DNA of 64,000 nt. Source: a virus. Shown in pieces: positions 2,191-64,000 of the stretch. The DNA lies in the IMG/VR virus record IMGVR_UViG_3300029911_000010, positions 40,428 through 104,427 of that record. One strand, written 5' to 3'. A model generated the notes under the pieces. It worked only from the letters and a program-made list of their open reading frames with translations. It ran no database searches and was not told the DNA's origin. The stretch's first letter is position 1; every line of letters begins with the position of its first letter. A program made the position numbers and the translations under genes.

Positions 2191-2386
2191 AATCTACTAC
2201 TTCGCCACTGGTTCCGGAATAGATTGTGACATCACACATTTGGGTCTCGTAGTTTAATCTGACCGTGAACAAACACGGATGCTCACGCGGTGTGACAAAT
2301 GTTCCAGCCATGTCGCAAGCTACGTGTGAAAGCAAATCAAAATTAGGTTCTTGCATGATGCCTTTGGGTTGAATGACAGGGGTCAA
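2132..2386 (-). CDS. Hypothetical protein
   Basis: ATGA-coupled to the upstream ORF. Confidence 0.5.
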   Translation of the reverse strand: MTPVIQPKGIMQEPNFDLLSHVACDMAGTFVTPREHPCLFTVRLNYETQMCDVTIYSGTSGEVVDCECLHASHVVDWLCDHKDY

Positions 2387-2610: not shown

Positions 2611-3194
2611 GAGGCTCCTTATTTTTTACGGCGCTCATTCATCCACTGATCCATCGTCTTACCGTCGAACACGTCTCGCTCGACTTCGTCCATGCTGTTC
2701 AAGATGAACATCCGTACGAGCAGCAGGACACAGAACAAAATAACAAGGCCAACGACCATCGTGCCGATAACTTCCATGTAGACTCCTGGTTAGCGGGTAA
2801 GAAAAATCCGCAGTCGACGCGATGGGATGAAAGTCTATACGACCAACCGCTGCGGAGCCGGCCGGAGTACGTGCAAGCTCTCTACGGAAGCTCGCAGTCC
2901 CGTCTAAACACAGCATTGGGGACCTGCCGCGTCATCGCTCACGTCAATCACGATTACGTTTCAATCATACGTCGCGGGGGCTTAGTTTCGTCAGATGCTT
3001 TTTGCAAAGCCACGATCGCATTCAAAGCAGCCGCCAACACGGACACGGATCGATAGGGGATTGTAACGCGGACAATTTCTGTGCCGCCAAGCAAGGGATC
3101 GGTTGTGATCACCAGCTGCGTTGCCGCTTCATTATCTTCAACACCTATGAATGGTTCCAGTGAAAGTCAACTCAGGTAAGGATGCGACGTTGAC

Positions 3195-3413
3195 TCAGTC
3201 GGCCAGCTTCAAGTTCAAATCGGCCAGCACGCGTTCGATTTCACGCAAGCTGACCCGACCGAAATTCTTGTAAGCCAGAAGGTCATCAGGCGTCTTTGCG
3301 ATAAGCTCTCTGATGGTGTTGACGTTGGCCTTGAACAAACATCTGCGGGCTCGATGTGATGACAAGTGCAACAGTTCGACGCTGCGATCGAGAACATTGA
3401 TTTCTTCTGACAT
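3195..3413 (-). CDS. Stand-alone RNA polymerase alpha-subunit C-terminal-domain-like protein
   Basis: LDRSVELLHLSSHRARRCL..ANVNTIRELI....DLL..KNFGRVSLREI matches the alpha-CTD pattern L.LS.R..NCL....I..I.EL.......LL...NFG.KSL.EI. Confidence 0.85.
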   Translation of the reverse strand: MSEEINVLDRSVELLHLSSHRARRCLFKANVNTIRELIAKTPDDLLAYKNFGRVSLREIERVLADLNLKLAD

Positions 3414-3501
3414 GGAAACTCCGGGTTAGAGGTCACTGGGTAGGGGAATGCCCGCGTGGGCTAAACTCTCTCATTTCTTTTGACGCATTTCAAGTTGAAA
3501 T

Positions 3502-4533
3502 TTACGTCGCAACCGCCTGAGCCGTAACATGCGGGCATTGGCCGTAGATATGCTTGGCTTTGTTACAGTTAGAACACAACAGTTGCCAATTGTCCTTCGG
3601 AAATCCGGCAGCTTTAAGCCGGCGGTAAAGCCTTAATCCGCCGCTGCCGTGTGCTCGACGATCATCAGCCCCCTTACCGTCGATGTGATCAATTTCTAGA
3701 AACTGCGGCAATGTTTCCGGACAACCAGGACACGAACATTTACTACCGTAGGCTTCGATGATTTCGGCGCGGAGTCGATCATGCTTGCGATTAGATTTTT
3801 TCCGACTCATTATCAAATGCCGCTCACACATTGTCTTGTCTTCGACTGCAAGTTGATCACAGTGCTGGGCAACACAAATCCCTTTGTCTTTCCGATTAGC
3901 GTAATCGTTCTTGTCTTCTTCTCGACAGTCGTCGCAATACCTATTGACTCCGTTGGTCGGTTTATCGCATTGCGTGCATTTGCCAGCCTGCTGTCGCTCC
4001 GCTGTTTTCTGCCGCCTTACTTCTCGGCACTGATCACATCGGACAGTCCCCGGTTCAACATAAGCCGGGCAGCTTTGACACAGACCGGCACGAAGACGAG
4101 CGTTGTAACGCGGAATATCTTCGATTCGTTCCAGCTGCAAAGCGTAACAGTACCGACAACGATCCTGCTCGGCATCAATGTAAAACGCGCCGCATTCGAT
4201 GCAAATCCCCTGAGCAAGCCGCTCAGCGGATTCGGTCTCTTTGATCGCTTGAGATTGCACGGCAAGTTCGGCAGCAGTCATAATCTGCCGGTTTCGTTGC
4301 TTTATAAGACACAGATCACAGTAAACTGAATCAACACCGGCCGGTTGTGTACAGCCAGTCGTCACGCATAAACCGGTCTGCTTGCGTCGAAGATATTTCT
4401 CGTGATCTTTTTGCTTAGCGACATCTGTGTGATACTGACATCTAGCTTTTCCCGGTAAAGCCGGTTGACTGCACGAACAACATAAACCCCGTTCACGCCG
4501 ACTTCGTTGTACATCTGCCGAATGAATCGCCAT
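3502..4533 (-). CDS. HNH endonuclease with N-terminal tandem Cys zinc-finger repeats (probable homing endonuclease)
   Basis: C-terminal EIDHIDG...QLLCSNCNKAKH; about six CxxC...CxxC/H repeats; lower GC than its neighbours. Confidence 0.8.
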   Translation of the reverse strand: MAIHSADVQRSRRERGLCCSCSQPALPGKARCQYHTDVAKQKDHEKYLRRKQTGLCVTTGCTQPAGVDSVYCDLCLIKQRNRQIMTAAELAVQSQAIKETESAERLAQGICIECGAFYIDAEQDRCRYCYALQLERIEDIPRYNARLRAGLCQSCPAYVEPGTVRCDQCREVRRQKTAERQQAGKCTQCDKPTNGVNRYCDDCREEDKNDYANRKDKGICVAQHCDQLAVEDKTMCERHLIMSRKKSNRKHDRLRAEIIEAYGSKCSCPGCPETLPQFLEIDHIDGKGADDRRAHGSGGLRLYRRLKAAGFPKDNWQLLCSNCNKAKHIYGQCPHVTAQAVAT

Positions 4534-4613: not shown

Positions 4614-5552
4614 TCAGACAAAGTCCGCACGGGCCAGCCCTGACGTGAAGCCAATCGTGCCGCCCATGGTCTCATAGGCGAAAAATTCCAACATAAAGGC
4701 TTCGCGCCTAATGTACATAGTCGTGTCTTCAAGCACATAGGACTTGCCGATGAACTTGGGATCACTGAACATGTACATCGTGTTGGTCGGGACCAGACCC
4801 TTCTTGATCGTGATCACCCAGGTCTTGCCCATGAACTCCTGGAGCGTCCAGCCGTTCTTCATGATGTCCTGAGACAGGTCGCCACCCATCTCGTTGCGGC
4901 CGAACTTGCACACATCCTTGATCGTGATGTGGTTGATGAGGATCGTGTGGACCTCCAGCGAGCTGGGGGTGTTGGGCATGATCTTCATCGCATCTTCCAG
5001 CGTATCGCGGGTGATGCCACCGGCAATCACTTCGTACTGGACGACGCCGCTGGTCGGGACAACCAGGCCGGGGCCGACGATCGCGGTGTTGATGGCGCGG
5101 ATGAATTTAGAATCTTCCTCTGCCAACATGTCCTTGATCGCGTTATCACTGAGCACCTGGCGGATGTCCATGATCCAGGTCCGCAGCTCGTCCACGTCTT
5201 TGGTGAAACGGGGCGTGACGATACGGTCGAACATGACGCGGTAGCGGGGACCGCGAATGTACAGGTTCTGCGGCAAGGTCGCGAACGCGATGCTGATGGC
5301 AGCAGGCGAATTCGGTTCCTTGTCGACCACCTTGACCGGCTTGTCGGTGTCGACCTGGCGGTCCAGCTCATCGTTGCCGATGGGCGTGGCCGGCAGGATG
5401 CGGCGGTAAAAGCCGTCTTCACGCATCTTCGTACGCGTGAAGTCGTTGATGGAATCTTCGGCCTGTTTGATCAGGCCGTTATCACGAGAGCCAAGCTGCT
5501 GAAAAAGCGTTTGATTCAGCAGCTTAGTTTCTTCGGGGGAGAGCTGAACCAT
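4614..5552 (-). CDS. Major capsid protein (HK97 fold)
   Basis: 312 aa; DELRTWIMDIRQVLSDNAIKDMLAEED resembles the strand plus spine-helix pattern; strongly biased codons; order protease-scaffold-decoration-capsid. Confidence 0.8.
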   Translation of the reverse strand: MVQLSPEETKLLNQTLFQQLGSRDNGLIKQAEDSINDFTRTKMREDGFYRRILPATPIGNDELDRQVDTDKPVKVVDKEPNSPAAISIAFATLPQNLYIRGPRYRVMFDRIVTPRFTKDVDELRTWIMDIRQVLSDNAIKDMLAEEDSKFIRAINTAIVGPGLVVPTSGVVQYEVIAGGITRDTLEDAMKIMPNTPSSLEVHTILINHITIKDVCKFGRNEMGGDLSQDIMKNGWTLQEFMGKTWVITIKKGLVPTNTMYMFSDPKFIGKSYVLEDTTMYIRREAFMLEFFAYETMGGTIGFTSGLARADFV

Positions 5553-47366: not shown

Positions 47367-48251
47367 TTATTTGTTGATAGTGATAACGACGGGGCACTGG
47401 TCGATCCAAGGCCGCATGTTAAAGACGTCGGAAGGCATAGTCCCACCGAAGCCTATCTGCACGCTGGTCGGCTCGATGTGCAGCCGGGTAACCTGATCCA
47501 GCGTAAAATATTTACGTCGAATTGCCTGCACGCCGCAACGATAACAAGTTTCCGCGTGCGTAGTGATGATTCCCTCATCCTCCCAGCTTCTAAGTTCTGA
47601 CGTGTCGTTGATGCGTGCCGGAAAAACCTGCATGTTGTCATTCAACACGAATGAAGCGCTGGCCTGCCAACAACTCGGACACGATCGCACACAAACAATT
47701 CGAGAATCCAGCCACGGTTTAAGCAACGGCAAGTCGACCTTAATCCACCCACGCAACGTTGCTTCGATCATGTTGCAGCCGCCGTGATGGACGACGGTCT
47801 TGGTCATCTCGTACGGCAGCATATACTGCTGGCCGTCGACCCAGGCGTAACACACGGACGGCTGACCATCCAGATGTCCGGTGATCTCCACGTTGGCCAT
47901 CTTCGGCGAAATATTAGTGTGAATTGACGGGTTACCGCCCAAGGCAATCAGCGTGAAATATGTGTCGTGTAAATCGGCAGCATCGTGCTTGGTCAGGTCA
48001 ACTTTAGCCTCGGTACATATCAAACCGATGTGCTCATCTGCACCGACCTTCAAGCGCATCTTGCTCTTGGCAGCTGTGAAGTCGGTGGTTAGCTCCACCC
48101 TGGCGGTTACGATCGGCTGCGCCCCGTGATGCTCGCTCCACGAACCTGACATGGCAGACATGGCAGTAGTATCATCCGGCAGCGACAGCAAGGCAGAAGG
48201 AGCGGCGGCAGAACCCAGGGCTAAACGCAGGAAATCTCGACGTGTGGACAC
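47367..48251 (-). CDS. Hypothetical protein with twin-arginine-like N-terminus
   Basis: MSTRRDFLRLALGSAAA; GGAGG SD. Confidence 0.6.
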   Translation of the reverse strand: MSTRRDFLRLALGSAAAPSALLSLPDDTTAMSAMSGSWSEHHGAQPIVTARVELTTDFTAAKSKMRLKVGADEHIGLICTEAKVDLTKHDAADLHDTYFTLIALGGNPSIHTNISPKMANVEITGHLDGQPSVCYAWVDGQQYMLPYEMTKTVVHHGGCNMIEATLRGWIKVDLPLLKPWLDSRIVCVRSCPSCWQASASFVLNDNMQVFPARINDTSELRSWEDEGIITTHAETCYRCGVQAIRRKYFTLDQVTRLHIEPTSVQIGFGGTMPSDVFNMRPWIDQCPVVITINK

Positions 48252-51480: not shown

Positions 51481-54400
51481 TTAACTCTTAGGAGCTGGGG
51501 TTGGACCCCACGGATTGCCTCCATGCCAGATGTCCCACTGTTTGCCACCGTACTCCGGTGCCAGCGCTGCGCTCAAGCCCAAGGCTCCAGCGCCGCCCAG
51601 TGCTCCGCCGATGCCCGGCGCTCCGCCGGCACCGAACGCCAGTCCGGCTAATGACATGATCAAACCTAACACTGCGGTGATCTTTTGTGCCGGCTCCCAA
51701 CTGTTATTCTTATTGAAGCCAAGTTGCTTTAACATCGGGTCCAGAAAACTCATCAATCCGACAATAGCTGTCGCCCCGCCTGCACCGCCGGTCATTGCCT
51801 TCGCCATCAACTGCGTCATTTTCGGATCACTCTTGATGATGTTGGTAATTCGCTCTCCGGCTGCATCATCTCCACCACGATAAGCTGCAAGCTCTTTGCC
51901 TAAACTGGCGACAACCGGATCACTGCCTCCGGCAGATGCCATAATCTGAGGAGCTAGTTGTTTGACTAGCGAACTATTGGCGAGCCGTTTAATAGCTTCG
52001 GGGTCATTCTGTTGAGCTGCTGAAATATCGCTGGCCATCTGTCGTTTGGCTGGATCGGTGGCTAACGACCAGATATTCTTTACTCCGCTCATAAAATCAC
52101 CAGCAGTCGGCTTGACCTTATCGAACGCATCGAACGCCGGACCGCCTGCCGCCTCTGTCATCCGAATCGGACCGTACGCCTGGTTGCGCACCGCCGTGGC
52201 AGCAGCATTGGGGTCTTCGCCGGGCAACGGCTTACCTTGCAAGGCGGTCTGCTGATCCTGTGCGTTTCGCCGTGCTGCCTCTAGCAGCTTGTTCGGATCG
52301 CCGTTGGCTTGCTGAATATCACCTGGCGTAAGCATGCCGCTGCTCATCGCCACTTGCGTCTTCATCTCGGGATTGACGCCAGGCCCGGAAGCGTTCTGAA
52401 TATTTCCCAGCTGCTGAGTTACACTGTCGTTCCACTGTGCCGCTGACATGCCGTGCTGCTTGGCTACCTCGACAGCTCGTGCTGCTCGCTGATGCAAATC
52501 GTAAGCGCTGCCGACGCCAGTGGCCGTTAATGCAGCCAGGTTGGTGCCACGACCGAGGTTTCTCATCAAGCTGGTAGGCGTGCCTGCTTCCATTCCGCCA
52601 GTGCCAGCCCGAACCCAGTCCAATGTCTTAGCGACCGGACCTTCCGCCCCGATCGCCTTAGTGAAACCACTGTTTGGAGCAACTGCCTTACTGATCTGAC
52701 CTAGTCCTCCTCGCAAACGGTTGGCGGAGCCGGCCAGTGTGGATGCAACTTCGGCCGGGTTGGTGTAGCCGAGCGTAGACCCCATCGCAAAGTCGTGTGT
52801 GGCCTGATTAAAACTCTGCAGCGCCTTATTTTCCGGCGCAAGCGCCCGCAGACCACTGGTGCCGGCACCGACCGCCAATCCGCCCAGCGTCATCGCCTTT
52901 TGTGCATTGCCGCCGGTCTGGTTGGGAAACAGCTTGTCCAGACTGCTGCCGGTAAAATTGCTGAGCATGGCTGTGTTGGCCGTGCGCAAATAAGGATTGG
53001 TCAGCATGCGACGTAATCCGCTCGCACCAGCTGCACCTTCCATCTGCCGGCCCACCGCCGGATTGAAAGCCGCCGCACCAGTCAAACCGCCCAGCCCTCG
53101 CCACATCAATTCGTGCTGCAGCTGTCCGGTGTTGGGATCGACGTCGCCGAAGTCCTTGCCCAGCTCAGCGCCAGTGCTCTGTCCGGCGTAACCGCCAAAC
53201 AGCGTCTGGGCTGCAGACATGCCGACGTTGCCGACCTGCTTGGCCCGCTGCATTGCAGTCATTGGCGGCTTGACTGGCGTGCCGGGAGCGGGAGCCGGCG
53301 TTTCGCCGGCCGGCGTCGCTGCTGCCGCTGTTTCGCCGGCAGGAGCTGGAGCTGGAGCAGGAGCTGGAGCAGGCGGTGAACCCGGACTCGGTGGCAACTC
53401 TGCTTCACCAGGCATGCCCAGCCGGCCCGTGGAAGGCGCTGAGGGCCTGGATGGAGCAGGCATGACAGACTCAGCAACCGGTCGCGGCTGAGGCGAAGGT
53501 TGAGGCCGCATTCGCGGAGGCGTATACAATCCTCTGGAAGGTGCGACCGGTGGCTCAAGATTCATCTTGGGCAGCGGGTTGGCCCCGTATAACATTGAAG
53601 CCGGCGGCCGCGTTTTCAGCGCCTCCTGCATCCCGCTCGCCATACCCTTGCCGGCTTCGCCCATGCCGCCCAAGCCCTTGGTTTCCTCACCAGCGCCGAA
53701 CAAGCCCTTGGCGCCTTCGACCAGCGCAGGGCCTTCCTTGGCAATTGCGCCGAACTCGCTGGCTGCCTTCTCCAGCTGCTCCAAGCCGTCAAGCAGCTCG
53801 TCGATGGCCGAGGGCTCCATCACGGCAGCCAGCTTGACGATCGTGTCGGCAGTCTGGTGCAGGCTCATGCCCCGCTCAAAACAGCCGTGCAGGAAGCCGG
53901 CGGCAAACGGGGACAGCGCAAAAGCTGATTTGCGATGCTCGGGCCACGGCTTGCCGCAGCGGTTGCAATTTCCGTCGTCGCCCCGTTCCATTGATGCCCC
54001 GCAATGCGGGCAATTCTCCCCCTCATGGCCGCCTGTCTTGAATCGGCTGGTCATCGCCGTGTCGAGCATCCGCTCATTGTCCAGATCACGCTTGGTCGAT
54101 CCCGGTGGCATACGACGCATAACCTCAGTCAAATCGTCGTTCTTGTGGTGTTGGTCGAGATATCCTGTGCCCAGGCCGTACAAGCCGCCCAGGCCGCCGC
54201 CAATGGCAGCGCCAGCCCCGGTATGCCCGCCAGCGATGTTTCCGCCCAGGGCTCCCACGCCAGCGCCCAGGCCGCCCATCAGCAAAGCTTTGAGCAACCC
54301 CTGCTTGCCCGGACTGGCCATCATATTGGGAATGGGAGTGGCGTCGTCCTGGATGATATCCGGCATCCAGTTGCTCTGCCCCTGCTCAACGCGGGCCTTC

Positions 54401-54573
54401 TCCCACGGCTCCAGATCCTCGCGGCGGTCGCCAATGGGCACAAACGACCGCAGCAGGCGTCCGGGAATGCCGGGGCTTGCGCCGGCGGCGGCCTTGGCCA
54501 GGGTGTCGTATGACTTCTTGTACTGATGGCGTGGCAGCCGTGCAATGCGGACAGCCTGGCTGGTCTCGGGCAT
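51481..54573 (-). CDS. Large glycine-zipper putative ejection/internal virion protein
   Basis: Start at ATG 54573; several GxxxG helices, a small Zn ribbon, a Pro-rich tract, K-x-A motifs. Confidence 0.6.
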   Translation of the reverse strand: MPETSQAVRIARLPRHQYKKSYDTLAKAAAGASPGIPGRLLRSFVPIGDRREDLEPWEKARVEQGQSNWMPDIIQDDATPIPNMMASPGKQGLLKALLMGGLGAGVGALGGNIAGGHTGAGAAIGGGLGGLYGLGTGYLDQHHKNDDLTEVMRRMPPGSTKRDLDNERMLDTAMTSRFKTGGHEGENCPHCGASMERGDDGNCNRCGKPWPEHRKSAFALSPFAAGFLHGCFERGMSLHQTADTIVKLAAVMEPSAIDELLDGLEQLEKAASEFGAIAKEGPALVEGAKGLFGAGEETKGLGGMGEAGKGMASGMQEALKTRPPASMLYGANPLPKMNLEPPVAPSRGLYTPPRMRPQPSPQPRPVAESVMPAPSRPSAPSTGRLGMPGEAELPPSPGSPPAPAPAPAPAPAGETAAAATPAGETPAPAPGTPVKPPMTAMQRAKQVGNVGMSAAQTLFGGYAGQSTGAELGKDFGDVDPNTGQLQHELMWRGLGGLTGAAAFNPAVGRQMEGAAGASGLRRMLTNPYLRTANTAMLSNFTGSSLDKLFPNQTGGNAQKAMTLGGLAVGAGTSGLRALAPENKALQSFNQATHDFAMGSTLGYTNPAEVASTLAGSANRLRGGLGQISKAVAPNSGFTKAIGAEGPVAKTLDWVRAGTGGMEAGTPTSLMRNLGRGTNLAALTATGVGSAYDLHQRAARAVEVAKQHGMSAAQWNDSVTQQLGNIQNASGPGVNPEMKTQVAMSSGMLTPGDIQQANGDPNKLLEAARRNAQDQQTALQGKPLPGEDPNAAATAVRNQAYGPIRMTEAAGGPAFDAFDKVKPTAGDFMSGVKNIWSLATDPAKRQMASDISAAQQNDPEAIKRLANSSLVKQLAPQIMASAGGSDPVVASLGKELAAYRGGDDAAGERITNIIKSDPKMTQLMAKAMTGGAGGATAIVGLMSFLDPMLKQLGFNKNNSWEPAQKITAVLGLIMSLAGLAFGAGGAPGIGGALGGAGALGLSAALAPEYGGKQWDIWHGGNPWGPTPAPKS

Positions 54574-54585
54574 CCTTGCTCCTTT

Positions 54586-54641
54586 GCCGCCCATCCATGA
54601 GCGACACAGACCATATTACTCCCCAGACGGTTTCTCGACAA
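54586..54641 (-). promoter_or_regulatory. Promoter plus CsrA-hairpin cassette, copy 1
   Basis: TTGTCG-17-TAATAT then GUCGCUC-AUGGAU-GGGCGGC. Confidence 0.55.
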
Positions 54642-55083
54642 TCACAGGACACGACACGGCGATTTGACTCGGTAGTTGATTATCGCCGGTCCGACGTATT
54701 ACTGCTTGCGCATGCAACCCGAACTTCGGAATGGTCATAGCACTCAGTTTTACTTCGACGGGAAACGTATGCCCCTTGCGGTGTCGTCCGCGCAACGGAA
54801 GACCACTGCCCATTTCACGCACACGCGGCTCGTTCATGTAGCCGTCACGCAAAAGCGGATGACGCTTTTTAACGTCGTCGGGAATGAGAATCTCAATCTT
54901 CTCGCCGATAACTTCCGAGCGGGCATAACCGAACAAAAATTCGGCCTGGGCATTGAACACGACGATTTGTCCGTCGTCAGCGATGACCACAATGGCGTCG
55001 GCGCTGGCCTCCAATGCCTTAAGGTAAATCTGTTCGAGCGCTTCGACGGAATAGTACAGCTTGTTTCTTTGTTCATTGTCCAT
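54616..55083 (-). CDS. Stand-alone PAS domain protein (FixL-like)
   Basis: DAIVVI..DGQIVVFNAQAEFLFGY...EVIG.KIEILIP....RH.....Y...RKGHTFPVEV. Confidence 0.85.
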   Translation of the reverse strand: MDNEQRNKLYYSVEALEQIYLKALEASADAIVVIADDGQIVVFNAQAEFLFGYARSEVIGEKIEILIPDDVKKRHPLLRDGYMNEPRVREMGSGLPLRGRHRKGHTFPVEVKLSAMTIPKFGLHAQAVIRRTGDNQLPSQIAVSCPVIVEKPSGE

Positions 55084-55555
55084 ATGCCGCCTCTTGTCCG
55101 TGTGCAGCCTCAGCGTGACCTTCCGAAGCCACGGCGATGGCGGCTTCGATACATGATCCGGCTATCAACCCGTAAGGCACGCAAACGTTCTCCAGAATCC
55201 ACGGACCGAAACGATGGTCTATCTCAAGAAACAATTCTTTGTTAGTAAAACTATGTCCAACCGTCCGGTAGAACTCACGCAGCTCATCGGCCTTGTCGCG
55301 GTACCACTGTTTCACTTCTTCGGTCAGTTGTAACGGTGACTCGTACTTACCCATGTGTCGCTGTAACACTTCGCTCTGGGCACGGCGCATCATGTAGTCC
55401 AGCATTTTATCGATTCGCTTATCGTGCTGGTGGACTAACGTCTCCAACACTCCGAACTTAGCCGCTTGCCGTACTAGAAACAATATAACGAGTACGAATC
55501 CAGCGAAAACCGAACCAGCCATACCGATAATTGTCAGACCGACTTCTATCGTCAT
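55073..55555 (-). CDS. Single-TM membrane protein
   Basis: N-terminal TM helix; start at ATG 55555 after AAGGAG. Confidence 0.6.
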   Translation of the reverse strand: MTIEVGLTIIGMAGSVFAGFVLVILFLVRQAAKFGVLETLVHQHDKRIDKMLDYMMRRAQSEVLQRHMGKYESPLQLTEEVKQWYRDKADELREFYRTVGHSFTNKELFLEIDHRFGPWILENVCVPYGLIAGSCIEAAIAVASEGHAEAAHGQEAAYGQ

Positions 55556-55588
55556 TTCTGTACTCCTTTGCTTGCTGCTCGTCATTTT

Positions 55589-55646
55589 TGCTGCTCGTCC
55601 GTGAGCGGCACAGATCGATATTACTCCGCAGAAGGTTTATCGACCA
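55589..55646 (-). promoter_or_regulatory. Promoter plus CsrA-hairpin cassette, copy 2
   Basis: TGGTCG-17-TAATAT then GCUC-ACGGAC-GAGC; similar in sequence to copy 1. Confidence 0.55.
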
Positions 55647-55813
55647 GCGATCATGATTTGCGGTAGAAATGCTTGACCGGATCGCGGACTTCGATCATCC
55701 ACCAGCGGTAGGCGACAAACCAGAAGGCCGTCATCGACCAGCCGAATATCGGCTCGCCGCATCCGCTCCAAATACGGCTGAGAAACCGCCGGCTCAGTCA
55801 GATGGACACCCAT

Positions 55814-56104
55814 TCAACCATTTGCTCGATCATCTTTTTTCTCGACAAATACAGGAACGTAGTCGCCTCCTGTCCTGAGGCTCTGATCAAACTTCCGGCA
55901 GTTGCTGGCAAACTGTTCCGGGTCGGCGATCAGTTGCGGGCAGAATTCGATCCCGACGAGCTTGGCCAGATCCGTGTATATGTCACGCCAGCACAAATCG
56001 TCGGCTCGTCGGGTCACTACTTTGCGGATAGCGTGATGGAGCTTCAATATTTCGGCTTTAAGCTCCTGGTTGTTCATCGCGTCGATGTCTAAGTCTTTGC
56101 TCAT
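55814..56104 (-). CDS. Hypothetical protein
   Basis: ATGA-coupled small ORF. Confidence 0.55.
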   Translation of the reverse strand: MSKDLDIDAMNNQELKAEILKLHHAIRKVVTRRADDLCWRDIYTDLAKLVGIEFCPQLIADPEQFASNCRKFDQSLRTGGDYVPVFVEKKDDRANG

Positions 56105-56415
56105 AGGTTTATCTCCGCCGGCTTAGCCTTCTTGATTACATCCCTGAATAACGTCAGCTCGTACTTCTCGAACACAGAGTATTCGCCGTCGACGGGCATG
56201 TGGAATGGATCGCCGGGCTCGTACTGATCGACCCGGTACAGTGATTCATCAAAGTCACGAGATCCAGCCATGACGCGAAAGCGGAAGAAGATGTCCGGGC
56301 CGCCTTTGTATTCCGGGTACGACTCGACCTTCATGAACAGGCCGGCCTTGCTCTTCTCAGTGAACAGCACGCCGTTCGGCTGGTTGACCAGTTCGTAGAA
56401 ACTCAGCTTGAGCAT
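56101..56415 (-). CDS. Hypothetical protein
   Basis: Part of a tightly packed small-ORF array. Confidence 0.55.
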   Translation of the reverse strand: MLKLSFYELVNQPNGVLFTEKSKAGLFMKVESYPEYKGGPDIFFRFRVMAGSRDFDESLYRVDQYEPGDPFHMPVDGEYSVFEKYELTLFRDVIKKAKPAEINL

Positions 56416-56421
56416 GATGCC

Positions 56422-56628
56422 TCACGTCAGGGTGCCAACAATGTTCTCCAGTTCGACGGCGACAGCCCGGTAGATCACCGACCGTGTTTCCTGCTGAGGA
56501 ATTGACAGCGCATCGTTGGGAGTATCGGCCGACTCGCGGATAGCCTGGGCCAGCAACGCCAACACCAATCCTGGGCCGTGCTGATTTACGACACCAATCA
56601 GCACGTTCTTTAATTCCGCCGTGGTCAT
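56422..56628 (-). CDS. Hypothetical protein
   Basis: ATGA-coupled. Confidence 0.5.
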   Translation of the reverse strand: MTTAELKNVLIGVVNQHGPGLVLALLAQAIRESADTPNDALSIPQQETRSVIYRAVAVELENIVGTLT

Positions 56629-56837
56629 GTCAGTATCTCCTTTTCGCGAATGAAATGCTTGCAGACCTTGCCGCAGCCGTCATGATCACCTAACACGTCG
56701 CGAAAAATGAGGTCGCACTTGCCGCAGCGCTCACACCAACCGCCCGGCATGGACCAGCAATGCAACCCCAGCCAGCAAGGCGACCAGGGATGATGACCGG
56801 CAATGAACAGGTACAGCTGGTGAAACAGGTATCGCAT
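56625..56837 (-). CDS. Small Cys/His-rich protein
   Basis: C..GLH.W....CERCG. Confidence 0.5.
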   Translation of the reverse strand: MRYLFHQLYLFIAGHHPWSPCWLGLHCWSMPGGWCERCGKCDLIFRDVLGDHDGCGKVCKHFIREKEILT

Positions 56838-56845
56838 GGCTCACA

Positions 56846-57799
56846 TCATACAGCGGGCACGGCTGCCTGCCCATTACCGTTGTAACTTGGTGTTCCAGTA
56901 TATCCCTCGGACAGCTTTGATCGTTGAAACGCAGAATCGGTCTTGCGCCGGTTAATCATCGCATCCCGCATCCTCTGTCGTCGCTCGGGAGTCCAGGAAG
57001 CCCGCTGCTTGGCCCGGCCGGCTTCCTTACGAGCTTGCTTATCCGCTGTCTCCTGCGCTGTTGGGTCACGCCGGGGTGATTCAGGCTCGGTCTCAGACTC
57101 ACGCTCACGCGGAATAGGCGGCGAACGATACGGCAAATCAGGATGGGCCAGATGCCCGTTGATGGTGACCTGCCCGACCGACAGGTGCTTGCGGCTTCGC
57201 CCCAGCGCCAGCTCGTCAACCAGGGCGTCGTCGGCTTCCTGTCCGATACTGCCGGCTGCCTTCTCTATAGCCTGCTGTGCGCTGACCATCAGGCCGCGAT
57301 CTTGAGGTGAGACCACCAGACGCTCCAGCAGGCAACTCAACACCTGCAAGCCGCCGTTGATCACCCGCAGAACGTTGGCCCCGGTCAGGCGAGTCAGCTC
57401 CAGTTGCGACCCGTCGTGGTAGTATCGCACGAGCATGTTGACGTCCAGCGGGATGTCGCCACGCTCGTCCGTGTAAGGCGGGGCTTCCAGCACCAGCTTG
57501 GCAGGCTCGGGCTCGTCCACCGCCTTTACCTCCACGGCAGCCGGCGGGTTGTACGGTGCAGCCAGCGGGTGGATTTCGCCCTTGGGCAAGGGAACCACGG
57601 CGGGAACCGGGGAACCGACAGGGAAGAAAGGGAACATCAGCGGCTCGTTGCGCTGGTTCTCTCGGGCAAAGCCGTGCAGCTCATTGACAAACTGCATCCA
57701 CAGCGCTGCCAGCTGCATGGGCACCTGGCAGTCCACCTTCTGCATCAAGATGGTATAGGTGGCAATGACGTCTTCCAGCGTTTGATCTTCCTTGACCAT
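56846..57799 (-). CDS. Hypothetical protein with NUMOD-like basic tail
   Basis: WTPERRQRMRDAM. Confidence 0.55.
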   Translation of the reverse strand: MVKEDQTLEDVIATYTILMQKVDCQVPMQLAALWMQFVNELHGFARENQRNEPLMFPFFPVGSPVPAVVPLPKGEIHPLAAPYNPPAAVEVKAVDEPEPAKLVLEAPPYTDERGDIPLDVNMLVRYYHDGSQLELTRLTGANVLRVINGGLQVLSCLLERLVVSPQDRGLMVSAQQAIEKAAGSIGQEADDALVDELALGRSRKHLSVGQVTINGHLAHPDLPYRSPPIPRERESETEPESPRRDPTAQETADKQARKEAGRAKQRASWTPERRQRMRDAMINRRKTDSAFQRSKLSEGYTGTPSYNGNGQAAVPAV

Positions 57800-57815
57800 G
57801 ACGATCTTCCTTGCG

Positions 57816-58106
57816 TTACTGCCCGTTGGGCTGCATGGGGGTTGTCGGAATCAGCTCGAACGTGACATAGCGGCCCTGACTCGCGACATTCCACTGCACT
57901 TTCCAGTGCTCACTGTACGCCTTGGTGATCCGGTCCTGCAAGCACAAGTTGGGCACGATGCCGCACCGGACAATATCAAGAGTTCCGCTCAACGCTGGAA
58001 TGGGATGATTGTCATCCTCGTTGAACAAGGCGTCCAGCTGAATGTCGATGAAGTTGGTGATGTGCTCGAAGGCGTCATCACCGGTGCATTGAAGTGGCGT
58101 GATCAT
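57816..58106 (-). CDS. Hypothetical protein
   Basis: AGGA SD. Confidence 0.5.
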   Translation of the reverse strand: MITPLQCTGDDAFEHITNFIDIQLDALFNEDDNHPIPALSGTLDIVRCGIVPNLCLQDRITKAYSEHWKVQWNVASQGRYVTFELIPTTPMQPNGQ

Positions 58107-58126
58107 GTTGTTCCTGATTAAACTGG

Positions 58127-59428
58127 TTAAGACTGCAAAAGAGGTTTAGAACTTACGGGTATCAGCTTGGTGACCTTGCGAACCGGCCGGCGGCGCAGCT
58201 CCTCGCTCAACGTGGGCTTTAGCTCGGCGGCAAGCTTGGTCACGCCGCCGGGCAGCAGATCGTTTAACACCGCTGCGACTATTTCCGGGGTAAGGTCATG
58301 GGCTTCGTCAAATAAAAGACTAACCCTATGGTTCAGCGGGTTCGACTGCTGATAATGACGCAAAACATCGGTCAGAGTAGCGCCGGCATCACCCAGGCTA
58401 TCGTTGGATTCTACCGGCGGCGCGGGATTGGCGTCTGCATCGGCCACGGCGTCAGGCAGGGCAGCCGGCGGCATGATCGGCGGCACCCAGCTGTCTTCAC
58501 GCATCCGGGCACGGGTGAAGTCATTGACTATCTGGTCTGCGGCGGCAGCCATGGAATCCTGCTCGGCCACCATCTCACGTATTTCTTGCGCTGGGTCGAT
58601 GCCCATACTGTGCAGGATAGCTTGCTCGTTGTACTGCCGAAGGCGATCCACGTACTCCCGCGACGCTGCTCCGCCGTCGCGGTTAGGCATCCCGAGATAT
58701 TCACGTACGAACGCATCGCCGTTTCGATTGATGTACGGCGTGCCGATATGGCTACCCTGACCGGTCGTTGAGACACCAACTGAACCCTCGGGACCTTGCG
58801 GGCCTGGATCTCCCGGCGGCGGCTCAATGTACGCAGTCGGCGATATTGACGAAAACGGGATAATCGTCTGTTCGGGTCTTGGCCGCATGCGAGTGGTCAT
58901 CGTGCGGATGGCTGCCCCGCTGACGCCGTCGATGGCGTACTGGCGGATCTCGTTGAGAATGCTGCGGTAGTAGCCGGCGTAGTAGCTCACGTCGTCGGTG
59001 TCGACGCCGCTGTCCTGAACGCCGCAGCCTCGGGGAAGGTAAACCTGACGTCCACTGTCAGGCCGATCGTCGTTCTCCAGTGACATTGTCGCCGCCCGCC
59101 AGGGCAGCCAGTAATGCCGGTAGATCGGGCCGTTAGCCGACAGGTTGCAGTTGAACGCAGGACGCCACAGACGCGGCAGATCACGCGGCCCCCACAGCAG
59201 CTCGTGAAAGTTGCCGTTGAACCACAGATCAGGCACGCCCATCAGGTTGGTCATGGCCTGGTACAAGTTGGAAGCCGAGCCCGGCGCAACCGTTCGCAGA
59301 CCCCACCACGGATTGAGATACAGATCATGGCCGACCTGGTTGCTGTACTCCGTAAGCGAGTCGTGTGTTTCAGACCGATACAGCAACGACTGAGCTGGTG
59401 ATTGTCGAGCTGGGGGTGCTTCGCTCAT
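58127..59428 (-). CDS. Mosaic hypothetical protein containing a capsid-like fragment
   Basis: NDFTRARMRED versus capsid NDFTRTKMRED; GGAGG SD. Confidence 0.65.
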   Translation of the reverse strand: MSEAPPARQSPAQSLLYRSETHDSLTEYSNQVGHDLYLNPWWGLRTVAPGSASNLYQAMTNLMGVPDLWFNGNFHELLWGPRDLPRLWRPAFNCNLSANGPIYRHYWLPWRAATMSLENDDRPDSGRQVYLPRGCGVQDSGVDTDDVSYYAGYYRSILNEIRQYAIDGVSGAAIRTMTTRMRPRPEQTIIPFSSISPTAYIEPPPGDPGPQGPEGSVGVSTTGQGSHIGTPYINRNGDAFVREYLGMPNRDGGAASREYVDRLRQYNEQAILHSMGIDPAQEIREMVAEQDSMAAAADQIVNDFTRARMREDSWVPPIMPPAALPDAVADADANPAPPVESNDSLGDAGATLTDVLRHYQQSNPLNHRVSLLFDEAHDLTPEIVAAVLNDLLPGGVTKLAAELKPTLSEELRRRPVRKVTKLIPVSSKPLLQS

Positions 59429-59445
59429 ACATCCTCCATGATAAC

Positions 59446-59546
59446 TACATCCGGCAGGAGTCGAACCTGCGAACCCCTCGGTCTCGCCCTGCAGGGGGCA
59501 CCTCGGGGTTTACCTGCGTACCATTAAGCCACTCTGGCACGGACGT
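59446..59546 (-). ncRNA. tRNA-like RNA with aberrant anticodon arm
   Basis: Acceptor ACGUCCG/CGGAUGU, D arm CCAGAGUGGCUUAAUGG, T arm GCAGG-UUCGACU-CCUGC; no canonical anticodon stem-loop. Confidence 0.75.
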
Positions 59547-59549
59547 ACG

Positions 59550-59840
59550 TCATTCGCTTTCGGCCACCCGGATATTCTTGATCTCGTGCAGTGGCTGTTG
59601 GATGGTTGTCCCGTGATAGTCAAAGACCGCCACCGGGATCACACTGACCACCTCGGACTTGCGGCCCATGTCGCTGACCGTCTCGGTTACTATCTTGCTG
59701 GAGATCTTCACAGTTTGTTCGTGCCCGTCCGGAAACTTAACCAGCAGCTTGCCACTCTTAGGTATTTTGAACTCTACGCTGCCGACAAACACCTTGCGGC
59801 TGCCCCAGTCGTTCTCGTATTTAATCTTGGCCCATTTCAT
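59550..59840 (-). CDS. Hypothetical protein
   Basis: GGGAG SD; 96 aa. Confidence 0.6.
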   Translation of the reverse strand: MKWAKIKYENDWGSRKVFVGSVEFKIPKSGKLLVKFPDGHEQTVKISSKIVTETVSDMGRKSEVVSVIPVAVFDYHGTTIQQPLHEIKNIRVAESE

Positions 59841-59849
59841 TGCTTCTCC

Positions 59850-60359
59850 CTAGCTTTGATATCCGGCGGGAATCACACACTTGAGAGCATACCGTTCGGT
59901 AGTTCCAGGGATCAGCTCGATACCAATAACCGTTACCGTCTTACCGGCGATCGTCCGCTGGTGGCCGATCGCCCCTTCCCAGATCCTTATATTGCTATTG
60001 CCGTCAACTTGCCAGCTCACGTATCTGGCCTCCGGCACCGGCCCAGGATCGGCGGTGGGAATCAGCTTGAAAATCTCCTCTTGATCCCGTTTGACCAGCA
60101 ACTGCACCCGCGCGGGGTCTCGCCACGGGATAGCCTGAAAGGTCTTGTAAAAATCATCCAGGTTGGCGCAGTTCTTGGCCGCCACGTACACGGAGCACTC
60201 CATGTACTTGGTGCCGCCGGCCAGGTAATCGACGCGGACAAGGTCCACGCCGCTTTCCCTGGACAGCCGCTTGACCAACTCGTGAGGCTCGCCCTGCTTC
60301 TCGTTGCCGTCATCCTCGCTGCAGCTGAGGATTAGAACAAAGTTGGTGACCACGCTCAT
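59850..60359 (-). CDS. Hypothetical protein
   Basis: GGGAG SD; 169 aa. Confidence 0.6.
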   Translation of the reverse strand: MSVVTNFVLILSCSEDDGNEKQGEPHELVKRLSRESGVDLVRVDYLAGGTKYMECSVYVAAKNCANLDDFYKTFQAIPWRDPARVQLLVKRDQEEIFKLIPTADPGPVPEARYVSWQVDGNSNIRIWEGAIGHQRTIAGKTVTVIGIELIPGTTERYALKCVIPAGYQS

Positions 60360-60528
60360 CGCTTCTCCCTTCGCGGGATTCGCAGCACCCGCAGAAACCA
60401 GTGAAACATCATCTCAAATACACCCCGGACCCGACCCATGTCCTGAGTCGGCCGGCCGCACCGGGGACAGAAGTTGGCTCTCTGCCGCACCTCGCAGCAG
60501 ACCGGGCACCAGCGGACGTAGATCTTGT

Positions 60529-60819
60529 TCATGTGCTACCCCTTATGCCGAGGTATTGCCAGTAAGTCCTTTCGTCTTCGTCCATCATGTCCTTGATGGC
60601 GTTGTCGCTGAGCACTGCCCGGATATCCATTTTCCAGGTCCTCAACTCGTCGACGTCCTTGGTGAACCTGGGCGTCATGAGCTTGTGCCAAACCCGGCGA
60701 GGCTGGCACCACTTGCTCAGCCAGGCAAGACAGCGCTCCAAAAGCCCCGGCGTGGCAGCTAGCGGAGCCAAGGGCACAGCAACGAAGAAACGACTGAGGA
60801 ATTGACGACGGCTAAGCAT
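60529..60819 (-). CDS. Twin-arginine N-terminus fused to a 30-aa major-capsid fragment
   Basis: MLSRRQFL; 28/30 aa identity to capsid residues encoded at 5127-5216. Confidence 0.75.
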   Translation of the reverse strand: MLSRRQFLSRFFVAVPLAPLAATPGLLERCLAWLSKWCQPRRVWHKLMTPRFTKDVDELRTWKMDIRAVLSDNAIKDMMDEDERTYWQYLGIRGST

Positions 60820-61006
60820 GACTGGCCTTCTGATAACTCTCTACAACGGCTAGAAGCTGTATGTACAGCGTCTCCTCGTCAGTCTGTTCTACTCTATCCA
60901 TCACGTCCAGCACGAACTGACGGATGGACTCTATACGATCAACGGGCTCGGCGTCATCAAGACCGTCGACATATTCGTTGCGAAGTTGTCCAAGAGGAAG
61001 TTCCAT
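60812..61006 (-). CDS. Small acidic hypothetical protein
   Basis: 64 aa; operon geometry. Confidence 0.5.
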   Translation of the reverse strand: MELPLGQLRNEYVDGLDDAEPVDRIESIRQFVLDVMDRVEQTDEETLYIQLLAVVESYQKASHA

Positions 61007-61008
61007 GG

Positions 61009-61260
61009 CTACTCTGCTTTCTGTTCTTCCATCGCCGCGATCGCCGTCTTCTCCGCTTCCAGCTGCCCAATCCGCCGTTGCAGATACCAGACAGCCTTCT
61101 GTAGATCTTCCGACGTGTCAGCCGCCTTCTTGCCGGCCCTGGAAATGTATTTGACTGCGTTGCCCAGGCAAAAGTCCAAATCCCACGCCTCGATCACTTT
61201 GATCGCCTCGTAAGGATTGTCCTTGCCGCCGTAATGTGCCGGGTGGTTGACTCTGCTCAT
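61009..61260 (-). CDS. DUF3310 family protein (T7 gp1.7-like)
   Basis: VNHPAHY...EAI..I....FCLGNAVKYISRAGKK...EDLQKAVWYL. Confidence 0.88.
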   Translation of the reverse strand: MSRVNHPAHYGGKDNPYEAIKVIEAWDLDFCLGNAVKYISRAGKKAADTSEDLQKAVWYLQRRIGQLEAEKTAIAAMEEQKAE

Positions 61261-61262
61261 GA

Positions 61263-61994
61263 TCAGGCTCCCGCGTCTCCGAATTCCTGTTTCAGCTTCA
61301 AGTACGTCTGGCGGCGAACTTCCAGCCGCTCCGCCTCCTCGGCCTTCGCTGCCTCGGCCTCTTCCTTCTCACGCACGGCGGTGAGGTTGAGCGTATGGCT
61401 GGCAGCTTTGACGAAGATGGTGGCCGTCTGCACGGACGGTCCAATACTGTCCTCGCTGGTGCCGCCGTGCGACTGGATGATCTCCATAGCCTCCTGGATT
61501 GCCGCCTGCGTGACCGTTGTGCAGTCGGGATGCTTGGCCCTGGTCTGCATCGGCACCAGCTTCTCGCCGCAGCTGATCGAATAGTCGCAGCCCTGGCCGA
61601 ACTGCTTCATGTACAGGAAGAAGTCGGCCGACACGGCTTCTTCCTTGCGCTTCTCTTCCTGTGTAGGCGGGGCTTCCAGCCCGTGATGTCTTCGCCCGTA
61701 TTGATCCACCTGATCGTTGACCACGATGAGGTTGGCCACGGCAGTACAGTTGACCACGATGAGGTTGGCCACGGCAGTACAGTCGGAGACCACCGAGGTG
61801 ACCTTGCCTAACACGGACGGGTCGTAGACTTCCACCTTGCCGGTCAGCGAGCCGTCTGCCTCGCGGTCGATCCTGACAACGGCTTGATCCTTGGCGATAC
61901 CGGCCAGCCGCAGCGCCGTGGTGATCTCCCGGCGGGCGTCCTCGGGTGTCTTGCCGTCGCCGGTCATGTCGATGGTCTTGTCGGTTTTGAGCAT
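61263..61994 (-). CDS. Hypothetical protein
   Basis: Start re-called at ATG 61994 after AAGGA; internal 11-aa duplication. Confidence 0.55.
   Translation of the reverse strand: MLKTDKTIDMTGDGKTPEDARREITTALRLAGIAKDQAVVRIDREADGSLTGKVEVYDPSVLGKVTSVVSDCTAVANLIVVNCTAVANLIVVNDQVDQYGRRHHGLEAPPTQEEKRKEEAVSADFFLYMKQFGQGCDYSISCGEKLVPMQTRAKHPDCTTVTQAAIQEAMEIIQSHGGTSEDSIGPSVQTATIFVKAASHTLNLTAVREKEEAEAAKAEEAERLEVRRQTYLKLKQEFGDAGA
61716..61781. repeat. 33-bp perfect tandem duplication (CTAVANLIVVN x2)
   Basis: 61716-61748 is identical to 61749-61781. Confidence 0.9.
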
Positions 61995-62019
61995 ATCTTT
62001 CCTTTCAGTTGTGCCTGCT

Positions 62020-62047
62020 ATTTTGCCCTGTTCGGGTGAAAGGTCAA
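62020..62047 (-). promoter_or_regulatory. Promoter with palindromic operator in the spacer
   Basis: TTGACC-TT-TCACCCGAACAGGGCA-AAAT; weak -10. Confidence 0.5.
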
Positions 62048-62053
62048 GAGCCG

Positions 62054-62082
62054 ATAAAATGAGCCGGCGGCGGGCCGGCTCA
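62054..62082 (-). terminator. Intrinsic terminator
   Basis: UGAGCCGGC-CCGCC-GCCGGCUCA followed by UUUUAU. Confidence 0.7.
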
Positions 62083-62120
62083 GGAGCGTTACAAATCAAC
62101 TTTTGCGGTGAAGCCAACTT

Positions 62121-63890
62121 CTAAGGCTTGGGTATCGGACGGCTGACTGGCTGAGTGGCGGCCACCGACCGGGCTCCAGCCGTGACACCGTCATAATGCA
62201 GTAAATAACCTGTCTTGGGCAACGACAAATCTGTGAACTTGTCGTTGCGGACATTGAACAGGCTGTCCCACGACTGCGTAGTCATGAATCCGACTTTAGA
62301 CAGATAGTTGACCGCGTTGGGAGACGGTGATCCCCTGTGTGTTCCGGGCCAGATGTTATGCACAATCAGGGAAAAACCCTTCGTGTCCACGGCGTTGATC
62401 CATACCGCAGAGTCCCAGCCGTAGCCAATGCGCAAATTAGGAGCCAGATAGGCATTGCTGGACAACAGGATGCTGCCCGCCGGAGCCGATCCAAAGACAT
62501 TGATGAAATTACCGTCCGTGCCGGTGTTGATCCCGGTGTTATTGAAGATCATCAAATCTTCAATCGTACCGAACGGCCCGCTGGGCGTGACTGCGATCTG
62601 GCCGGTGCCGCTGATGTTAAACACATTGTCGCGAATCATGACGTGGTGGCCGACCTCGTCGATCACCAGCTGTGCGCCATCAACATAGTTGTTAGCGTAA
62701 ACCACCCAAGTCGCCTGCTGATCCGGAGTCTGTCCGGGGCTGGGCGAGATTGCGAACGTGCTGGAATGCAGCAGGTTGTTGGTGACATAAACGAAATGCC
62801 CGATCCGGGTGTCGACCGTGGTCTTCTGTGCCTCCGCCTCATCGTCGTCCGGATACTGCTTGGTCAGATCATTGCCCGACACCAGAACGCCCACGACATC
62901 GTCATCGTTGATCCGTACACAATGCGCCCGAGTGGTGTTGGTCATCTGGTTGCCGGTGATGGTCCAGCCGCTGCCGTCCACCCAGGTCAAGTAGCCCCTC
63001 ACGCCTTTAAGCAACGGAGCCTGGTTGTTCTCCACCACTACGCCTTGCGGCTGCAGGGTGCCGTTGATCGCGTCGCCGACATTAAGGAAGGTATTGCGCC
63101 GGACCACCAGGTTGGAGCCGCCCGCCCAGACCGCATAGCTGTTCAAGTCATCCGCCGGCCCGGCGGTCACTGCGTTGGGCGAATCAAACGCCAGGTCCTG
63201 TATCGTGATGTTCCAGCAGTCGGTGCCGACAAACAAAATGGCCTGTGAGCCATCGACGGGAGCAAACATCAAACTGGGAGCCGTGCCGACGCCGTAAGCG
63301 CCCAGCAGCTGATCGTGACCATTGAACCACAACGTCGTGGTCACCGGGTAAACCTGGTTACGGCAAAGAAAGATCTCGGTGTTGCTGCCGAACAACGAGA
63401 ACCCCTTGTCGACAGTTTTCAACGGATGATCAGGTGATATGCCTGAATTGGCGTCCGATCCGTTGATTCCGTCCACGTAGTAGGCGACACGGGTGTCCGC
63501 AGCGATCGTGGCCTGGGTGGTGGCCGTGGATATCGCCCCATTGTCATCAGTTAGAGTCATGGTGATCGTGTAAATGCCGGCCTGGTCGTAAACATGCCCG
63601 GCGTTGAAACCGATCAGTGAATTATGTTGGCCGGCCGGGTCGCCAAAGTCCCAGCGGTAATCTGCGGTCAGCGGCGAGCCGTGATTGAGCGTGGACTGGA
63701 TGGCGCTGACGTTAATCGCCTCGCCGGTTGTAACGCTAGTCTGCATGGCAGTCAGCACCGCCTTAGTCGGCTGAGCCAACATCCAGGCAGCCGGTCGGGT
63801 TGCCGGCCGGGTAGCAGTAGGTAAAGGTTTCGGAGCGGCCAAGACCATGACGGACATGAGCGATACGAGGATCGCAGATAGACAACGCAT
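62121..63890 (-). CDS. Secreted PKD-domain plus right-handed beta-helix protein
   Basis: Signal peptide; YRWDFGD...HVY..AG.YTIT.T.TD (PKD); YYVD...GSDANSG....PLKT then parallel beta-helix repeats; start ATG 63890. Confidence 0.8.
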   Translation of the reverse strand: MRCLSAILVSLMSVMVLAAPKPLPTATRPATRPAAWMLAQPTKAVLTAMQTSVTTGEAINVSAIQSTLNHGSPLTADYRWDFGDPAGQHNSLIGFNAGHVYDQAGIYTITMTLTDDNGAISTATTQATIAADTRVAYYVDGINGSDANSGISPDHPLKTVDKGFSLFGSNTEIFLCRNQVYPVTTTLWFNGHDQLLGAYGVGTAPSLMFAPVDGSQAILFVGTDCWNITIQDLAFDSPNAVTAGPADDLNSYAVWAGGSNLVVRRNTFLNVGDAINGTLQPQGVVVENNQAPLLKGVRGYLTWVDGSGWTITGNQMTNTTRAHCVRINDDDVVGVLVSGNDLTKQYPDDDEAEAQKTTVDTRIGHFVYVTNNLLHSSTFAISPSPGQTPDQQATWVVYANNYVDGAQLVIDEVGHHVMIRDNVFNISGTGQIAVTPSGPFGTIEDLMIFNNTGINTGTDGNFINVFGSAPAGSILLSSNAYLAPNLRIGYGWDSAVWINAVDTKGFSLIVHNIWPGTHRGSPSPNAVNYLSKVGFMTTQSWDSLFNVRNDKFTDLSLPKTGYLLHYDGVTAGARSVAATQPVSRPIPKP

Positions 63891-64000
63891 AGGAAACTCC
63901 TTGAACGTAAACGGCCTCCGGCCCGGAATGTTGGCAGTGAGGATGCCCCAGGCAGGCAGGTAAGTCAAACAAATAGATATATCCGGCTCGTTGGCGAGCC

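Follow-up and report, generated by a model that had tools for sequence, protein, structure and literature searches.

An uncultured soil jumbo phage of roughly 200 kb carries a 96-aa accessory ORF in which a 30-residue block, identical at 28 positions to part of the phage's own major capsid protein, lies behind a twin-arginine-like leader. The explanation that best accounts for the whole, to which we assign a probability of roughly 0.4, is that the ORF encodes a selected mimic of the capsid block within a lineage-specific accessory gene. The core of the block is conserved in amino acid sequence while its synonymous sites are saturated relative to every capsid gene sampled, the residues flanking it have strongly diverged, and other pieces of the capsid protein occur in further accessory proteins of this phage and its relatives.

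Structure of the 96-aa ORF

The record analysed (IMGVR_UViG_3300029911_000010) is a 104-kb linear IMG/VR entry judged to be 47% complete, and the window, meaning the whole stretch of DNA studied here, is its last 64 kb. All of the long genes in the window lie on the minus strand. The ORF, which the earlier note had reported at 60529-60819, was present there as a 96-aa frame on the minus strand, and its parts are as follows:

60529..60819, minus strand: accessory ORF of 96 aa, composed of a signal-like leader, a linker, a capsid-derived block, and a short tail
60826..60830, minus strand: Shine-Dalgarno-like GAAGG, 6 nt 5' of the ATG, read from the sequence
60793..60813, minus strand: twin-arginine-type motif S-R-R-Q-F-L-S, ORF residues 3-9, assigned by motif match
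60754..60789, minus strand: uncharged hydrophobic stretch, ORF residues 11-22, with L-A-A at its C-terminal end (mean Kyte-Doolittle value, 2.1)
60586..60675, minus strand: capsid-derived core of 30 residues, ORF residues 49-78, with 28/30 residues identical to the capsid protein
60562..60699, minus strand: whole detectable capsid-similar span, ORF residues 41-86, with strongly diverged flanks, delimited by protein comparison

The ORF overlaps both of its neighbors: its ATG and the stop codon of the 64-aa ORF upstream lie in an 8-nt overlap, and its TGA and the ATG of the 58-aa zinc-ribbon ORF downstream lie in one of 4 nt. A consensus scan of the coding strand between the genes flanking the 96-aa ORF found no promoter- or terminator-like sites. 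The GC content at codon positions 1, 2, and 3 (0.53, 0.46, and 0.72) resembles that of the phage's long genes, and the best codon score among the six frames at the locus was that of the ORF's own frame. Seventeen public contigs, of which the longest measures 183.5 kb, encode an exactly identical 96-aa protein, and two variants were found with one residue changed in each (F7V and P50R). One gene caller chose the internal Met 48 as the start (P0030), upstream of which no Shine-Dalgarno-like sequence could be read. No Pfam domain was found in the ORF, and its sequence contains no K-x-A that might serve as a protease site. The best explanation of these sequence features is that the 96-aa ORF is probably a genuine accessory gene specific to this lineage, within an operon of closely overlapping frames.

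The capsid gene and the copied block

The source family of the block is that of the capsid gene, which lies at the other end of the window:

4614..5552, minus strand: major capsid protein gene, HK97 fold, 312 aa, identified by profile and fold matches
5127..5216, minus strand: counterpart of the copied block, capsid residues 113-142, overlapping the 30-residue window with the highest conservation in the family (118-147)

The product of 4614..5552 is the major capsid protein and has the HK97 fold. The 312-aa protein matched PHROG 2522, 'major head protein', with an E-value of 4e-9 and the NCBIfam HK97-fold capsid model NF042927 with an E-value of 7e-12, a match that falls under the model's cut-off. 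A profile of 39 capsid family members matched PDB entry 6wkk, 'Gp27 major capsid protein', with an E-value of 6e-9. The top fold matches of the capsid model were all HK97-fold capsids (lambda, HK97, PhiTE, and ICP1-related), with E-values that were weak because the capsid model is poor. No Pfam family, PF07068 included, was reported for either the capsid protein or the 96-aa ORF. In IMG/VR, 80 capsid homologues were found at 61-87% identity, and the gene upstream of the capsid gene is conserved in 82 loci.

When the locus 60529..60819 was compared with the window by blastn, it matched the capsid gene over 77/94 nt (82%, E 4e-21) and gave no other significant match. Weaker protein similarity, detected at the genome level, extends more widely than the core, with ORF residues 41-86 aligning to capsid residues 105-150 at 65% identity (E 2e-17). 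For the core itself (60586-60675), our recount agreed exactly with the count reported previously, namely 28/30 identical residues with 10 synonymous and 2 non-synonymous codon differences. A complete HK97 fold (N-arm, E-loop, P-domain, and A-domain) was not found in the 96-aa ORF, in which 46/312 capsid residues align. Rather than being a capsid protein, the ORF carries a single capsid block and is unable to form the fold.

As aligned by profile to 6wkk, the block lies immediately past the strand returning from the E-loop and extends into the long helix, which at this position of HK97-type capsids we take to be the spine helix. Most of the block is helical in both AlphaFold models, which are of low confidence (pLDDT of 59 for the capsid protein, poor over residues 64-143, and of 53 for the ORF). 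The name 'spine-helix region' given to the block in the earlier note is therefore a fair label in view of the 6wkk alignment and the helical models, and the position is not firmly mapped at this level of model confidence. Among the 39 capsids, the 30-residue window of lowest entropy was 118-147, so the copy takes in the stretch that this family conserves most strongly. In these capsids, conservation is about as high in the eight residues adjoining each end of the block as within it.

Divergence of the block from capsid genes

The homologous 46 codons were taken from 128 capsid genes (IMG/VR and JGI metagenomes). Over the 90 nt of the core, the ORF shares 76 nt (84%) with the closest of the 128 capsids and 74 nt with the phage's own capsid gene, and the phage's own capsid gene shares 82 nt with its nearest capsids. 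Capsid pairs sharing at least 28/30 core residues had a median identity of 72/90 nt. These identities indicate that the synonymous sites of the ORF core are about as scrambled as those between unrelated members of the capsid family, and because they are saturated relative to all 128 capsid genes, none of the sampled capsids can be named as the donor. As judged from nucleotide identity, the core was not duplicated recently from the resident capsid gene, nor was it captured recently from any of the capsids sampled.

By the Nei-Gojobori method, comparison with the phage's own capsid gene gave a dN of 0.065 and a dS of 1.39 for the core, and a dN of 0.95 and a dS of 1.01 for the flanks. Residues differing from the capsid protein numbered 2/30 in the core versus 14/16 in the flanks (Fisher p 5e-8). 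The divergence of the flanks, unlike that of the core, far exceeds any found between capsids. Both of the core substitutions, I to K and Q to A, required changes at more than one base, and the five non-synonymous base changes are confined to these two codons, leaving 28 codons without an amino acid change. The substituted Q is near-invariant in capsids, and none of the sampled capsids was seen with A at this position.

The earlier note offered two alternatives, selection on the peptide or its capture from a capsid gene of a related phage. The data lean to the former, as saturated synonymous sites and a conserved core beside diverged flanks would be explained best by long-term purifying selection on the peptide. 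Capture is the less favored source, although a short, precisely bounded patch taken from an unsampled capsid lineage would be expected to give the same core statistics. The 96-aa gene's own family consists of three variants differing by single residues, so selection is not measurable inside that family.

Genome setting and distribution

The closest complete relative, G004 (224 kb, with terminal repeats), was compared with the window gene by gene. Synteny with G004 extended across window positions 1-51.4 kb, and no homologue was found in G004 for any gene of window positions 51481-64000, a 12.5-kb arm whose start adjoins the point matching the end of the G004 genome. Since 51.5-64 kb is without G004 homologues, the 96-aa ORF sits in a lineage-specific accessory arm. 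The arm also contains a 1037-aa orphan and several further orphans, together with three proteins with recognizable domains:

54616-55083, in the 12.5-kb arm: stand-alone PAS-domain protein
61009-61260, in the 12.5-kb arm: DUF3310 protein
62121-63968, in the 12.5-kb arm: PKD-domain protein

Whole records of 53 related phages, 19 of them at least 90% complete, were queried with the 96-aa ORF, and a second copy of the block outside the capsid gene was found in none of them; related IMG/VR loci queried in the same way returned full capsid genes only. Homologues of the whole ORF were limited to near-identical copies and capsid fragments, and a search for look-alikes in the ESM Atlas gave nothing usable. 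Genes combining a Tat motif with a capsid fragment, which the earlier note had suggested seeking in other phages, were absent from the 50 to 53 related phages searched. Capsid-fragment genes without a twin-arginine leader do recur in the family.

Other capsid pieces in this phage and its relatives

An all-against-all comparison of the 111 called proteins of the genome yielded only four paralogue pairs, two of which join the capsid protein to proteins of the 12.5-kb arm, namely the 96-aa ORF and a 433-aa protein. Genome-wide, the only short partial matches to another gene involved the capsid gene and not random genes. The second of the two arm proteins is located as follows:

58127..59428, minus strand: accessory orphan of 433 aa, 1.1 kb downstream of the 96-aa ORF, with a second capsid-like piece (pairwise E 2e-6)

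Residues 283-344 of this protein (62 residues) resemble the capsid N-arm region 17-78, and within its gene, an 11-residue core at 58493-58525 shares 9/11 residues and 27/33 nt with the capsid N-arm motif. The 433-aa protein also contains a collagen-like G-x-y run. It was found on 12 contigs, with one variant carrying a 4-residue insertion just N-terminal to the capsid motif. The plus strand gave a third match resembling the capsid, at 59422-59517, which with an E-value of 0.47 was taken as chance.

When whole records were searched with the full capsid protein, extra capsid-like pieces were found in about 7 of 50 relatives. Recent and old copies, judged against the same phage's capsid gene, were the following:

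L242:985-1173, minus strand: 62-aa ORF with capsid residues 240-276, identical at 103/111 nt to that phage's own capsid gene, a recent copy
L245:1065-2066, minus strand: 333-aa ORF whose last 25 residues correspond to capsid residues 85-108, identical at 71/75 nt to its own capsid gene, a recent copy
L243:658-1233 and L246:575-1273, minus strand: homologous pair of 191 and 232 aa, with dS above 1.2 relative to their own capsids, old copies

In the N-terminal part of the homologous pair, the capsid E-loop strand is joined directly to the C-terminal strands and is followed by a helical domain that the two proteins share. The relatives also encode a 156-aa ORF with the N-arm block of the capsid, a 92-aa ORF that begins with a transmembrane-like segment and carries the C-terminus of the capsid protein, and two larger patchwork proteins with capsid pieces. 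A twin-arginine start was found in none of the relatives' capsid-piece ORFs. The presence of both recent and old pieces indicates that copying into other genes is ongoing in the family and that some copies are long-lived. The data also indicate that at least some copied capsid fragments in this phage family are retained under what appears to be constraint.

A collection of 5.8 billion proteins yielded the small proteins P0008, P0028, P0034, and P0038, which have the spine-region block with unrelated ends; some may be artefactual, having arisen from broken capsid genes. P0008 (81 aa, JGI, two contigs) has only seven residues N-terminal to the block, and the central six residues of its block are replaced by a 30-residue insert. 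A metagenome scan with P0008 returned capsid genes only.

These comparisons bear on the alternative that survives best, which we nevertheless consider unlikely: a capsid patch of about 94 nt from an unsampled relative could have been pasted into the locus by illegitimate recombination and persisted as neutral mosaic debris, in which case the open frame and the leader would be incidental and the synonymous excess would have been inherited from the donor. The restriction of the 96-aa gene to one phage lineage, the orphan status of the leader, and the continued copying of capsid pieces into other ORFs of relatives, some of it very recent, would be consistent with such a process. It is harder to reconcile with the 128 capsid cores, none of which is close at the nucleotide level, and with the absence among sampled capsids of A in place of the near-invariant Q. 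The packing of five base changes into two codons beside 28 codons without amino acid change, the placement of the patch exactly in frame within a translationally coupled small gene of gene-like codon use, and the fact that short partial matches across the genome involve the capsid rather than random genes also argue against debris.

A possible mimic of the capsid block

If the ORF does encode a selected mimic, an ancient copying event would have placed about 46 codons of an HK97-fold capsid gene in a small gene of the variable arm. The donor would most likely have been the lineage's own capsid gene, as the recent copies in relatives stem from their own capsid genes. Thirty residues, comprising the strand after the E-loop and the first part of the spine helix, would then have been held nearly unchanged by purifying selection, while the flanks drifted or adapted and the core I and near-invariant Q were replaced with K and A, respectively, by multi-base changes. 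The protein might display the capsid block as a molecular mimic and thereby occupy whatever recognizes this block on the real capsid, the most likely target being a capsid-sensing protein of host immunity. With the two substitutions, the mimic might bind the sensor without triggering it, and its hydrophobic leader of twin-arginine type would keep it at the membrane or the Tat machinery. Beyond the sequence statistics, we infer every step of this scheme, including expression, export or anchoring, the binding partner, and the anti-immunity role.

Bacterial defences recognizing conserved capsid regions are now well documented, and the Lit protease is triggered via the Gol peptide of T4 gp23. CapRel SJ46 is a bacterial immunity system that is activated by the major capsid protein (PMC9712102). 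The recognition of short conserved capsid regions by some host defences provides the rationale for a capsid-peptide mimic. In contrast to the CapRel and Lit cases, no defence gene of this kind has been linked to the phage studied here, and the resemblance to Gol is conceptual only, the capsid here not being of the gp23 type (no PF07068 match). Full-text literature searches found no phage-encoded capsid-fragment inhibitor of capsid-sensing defences, nor any report of a Tat-type leader on a capsid fragment or of the function of such genes.

The nearest published idea that we found concerns Bodo saltans virus, whose ankyrin-repeat proteins contain fragments of essential viral genes and have been proposed to act as decoys that draw off antiviral factors of the host (Deeg et al. 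2018, PMC5871332). In both cases, an accessory protein encoded in a variable part of the genome contains a piece of one of the virus's own essential proteins. However, Bodo saltans virus is a giant eukaryotic virus in which fragments of catalytic domains are combined with ankyrin repeats, and its decoy role is likewise only proposed, whereas the 96-aa ORF belongs to a virus of a bacterial host and combines a 30-residue capsid block with a signal-like leader as the partner module, without ankyrin repeats.

If these proteins are mimics, the 96-aa gene and the capsid-piece genes of its relatives would represent a new kind of phage accessory protein, and the copied block would mark a capsid surface relevant to whatever is mimicked against. 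Even if the function differs, capsid fragments have been repeatedly copied into new genes in this phage family. With 96 residues, a sharply bounded block, and two substitutions setting the copy apart from the capsid, the ORF offers a directly testable case.

A further alternative is interference with, or control of, capsid assembly, a role that ranks after debris and that we regard as doubtful. The block would bind the capsid or a partner (protease-scaffold, decoration protein, or chaperone), either poisoning the heads of co-infecting relatives or timing the phage's own assembly. Being the most conserved part of the family, it would fit the capsid of any relative, and related phages with the same block are abundant across many environments; what relatives have copied are likewise core elements of the capsid (N-arm, E-loop strand, and C-terminal strands). 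However, the phage's own capsid has the same block, so self-poisoning would need to be avoided. In HK97-fold proteins, the spine helix is buried within its own subunit, and a segment that packs in this way is not an exposed docking site. An assembly factor acting in the cytoplasm would also not be expected to have a signal-like leader. Additional genes that descend from the major capsid protein are known, such as T4 gp24 relative to gp23 and the capsid homologues of phage satellites, which retain the complete HK97 fold and assemble or remodel shells. The 96-aa ORF resembles these paralogues and redirectors in being derived from a major capsid protein, but differs from them in keeping 46/312 residues.

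The twin-arginine-like leader

The Tat consensus near the N-terminus of exported proteins is S/T-R-R-x-F-L-K. The start of the ORF, S-R-R-Q-F-L-S, fits this consensus and is followed by 12 uncharged hydrophobic residues (11-22). A twin-arginine-type motif with a hydrophobic start was found in 2/724 six-frame ORFs of the genome, both on the coding strand, and in 0/1274 ORFs of the relative G004; the combination of motif and hydrophobic stretch is rare by chance. Nothing was reported for the 96-aa ORF with the Tat profiles PF10518 (Pfam, E up to 1) and TIGR01409 (NCBIfam, E up to 10), in searches where HMMER filters are able to drop matches as short as the leader. At the end of the hydrophobic stretch, L-A-A precedes T-P-G; as a candidate A-x-A signal peptidase site, this is permitted but atypical. 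Comparison of the leader alone with 1.84 billion representative proteins gave no real homologue, the two matches being junk repetitive translations.

Like Tat signal peptides, then, the ORF has S-R-R-x-F-L at residues 3-8, an uncharged hydrophobic stretch, and small residues (L-A-A) ahead of a possible cleavage site. Unlike the signal peptides described by PF10518 and TIGR01409, its leader is not scored by the profiles and has an n-region of only two residues, and unlike Tat substrates, its cargo is a 70-residue helical peptide without a cofactor domain. Of the twin-arginine leader that had been claimed, the motif and the hydrophobic stretch stand, and a Tat profile match and a homologue among the 1.84 billion representatives are lacking. 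On its sequence, the leader is best called twin-arginine-like, and export is putative. The second twin-arginine-type N-terminus mentioned in the earlier note, at 48251, proved to be the other of the 2/724 ORFs:

47367..48251, minus strand: 294-aa ORF with a twin-arginine-type N-terminus of textbook appearance and sub-threshold matches to PF10518 and TIGR01409

No capsid piece was found in this ORF, nor was a homologue in G004 or a paralogue in the genome.

The leader raises the alternative of an envelope protein with an exapted helix, which we consider improbable and place behind the assembly role. The leader would send the protein to, or anchor it on, the periplasmic side, for example in superinfection exclusion or lysis control, and the capsid segment would serve as a stable helix only. 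This is consistent with the fit of the start to the twin-arginine consensus, followed by the 12-residue hydrophobic stretch and L-A-A, and with the second such leader in the same phage (47367..48251). One relative's capsid-piece ORF has a transmembrane-like N-terminus, and two cysteines lie within the presumed mature part of the 96-aa protein. However, a segment serving only as a generic helix would have no need to match the capsid at 28/30 residues when synonymous divergence is saturated, the capsid pieces in neighboring and related accessory proteins would be left unexplained, and the Tat profiles do not score the leader.

The leader also bears on the capsid-block mimic. Real export would take the capsid-like part out of the cytoplasm, where known capsid sensors act, and a copy of a trigger peptide could activate a sensor just as well as block it; both points count against mimicry. 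If the leader truly exports, a cytoplasmic decoy becomes harder to sustain, and the envelope reading gains. A more specific form of the mimic, in which the leader-tagged protein would bind a cytoplasmic sensor of the capsid block and remove or sequester it at the membrane by Tat 'hitch-hiking', as one member of a wide class of phage self-mimic anti-immunity proteins not yet described, is in our view a long shot.

A nucleic-acid element common to the capsid gene and the ORF locus (RNA structure, protein-binding site, or packaging signal), to which the 82% nucleotide identity over 94 nt between the two loci might have pointed, is effectively refuted, because the differences fall at synonymous positions and capsids encoding the same peptide share only about 72/90 nt, which indicates conservation at the protein level.

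Other features of the window

No tRNA or tmRNA gene was found anywhere in the window by ARAGORN. Directly 3' of the capsid gene lies a segment of about 3.2 kb with an HNH endonuclease gene (window 1398-4533, minus strand; HNH ORF at 3502-4533), which is missing at that spot in the closest relative. A homing-related origin of the copied block via this endonuclease was considered and rejected: the endonuclease is sporadic among relatives, but nothing connects it to the block. Of 83 related loci, only 5 have divergent HNH genes at this position, a distribution that fits a mobile free-standing endonuclease.
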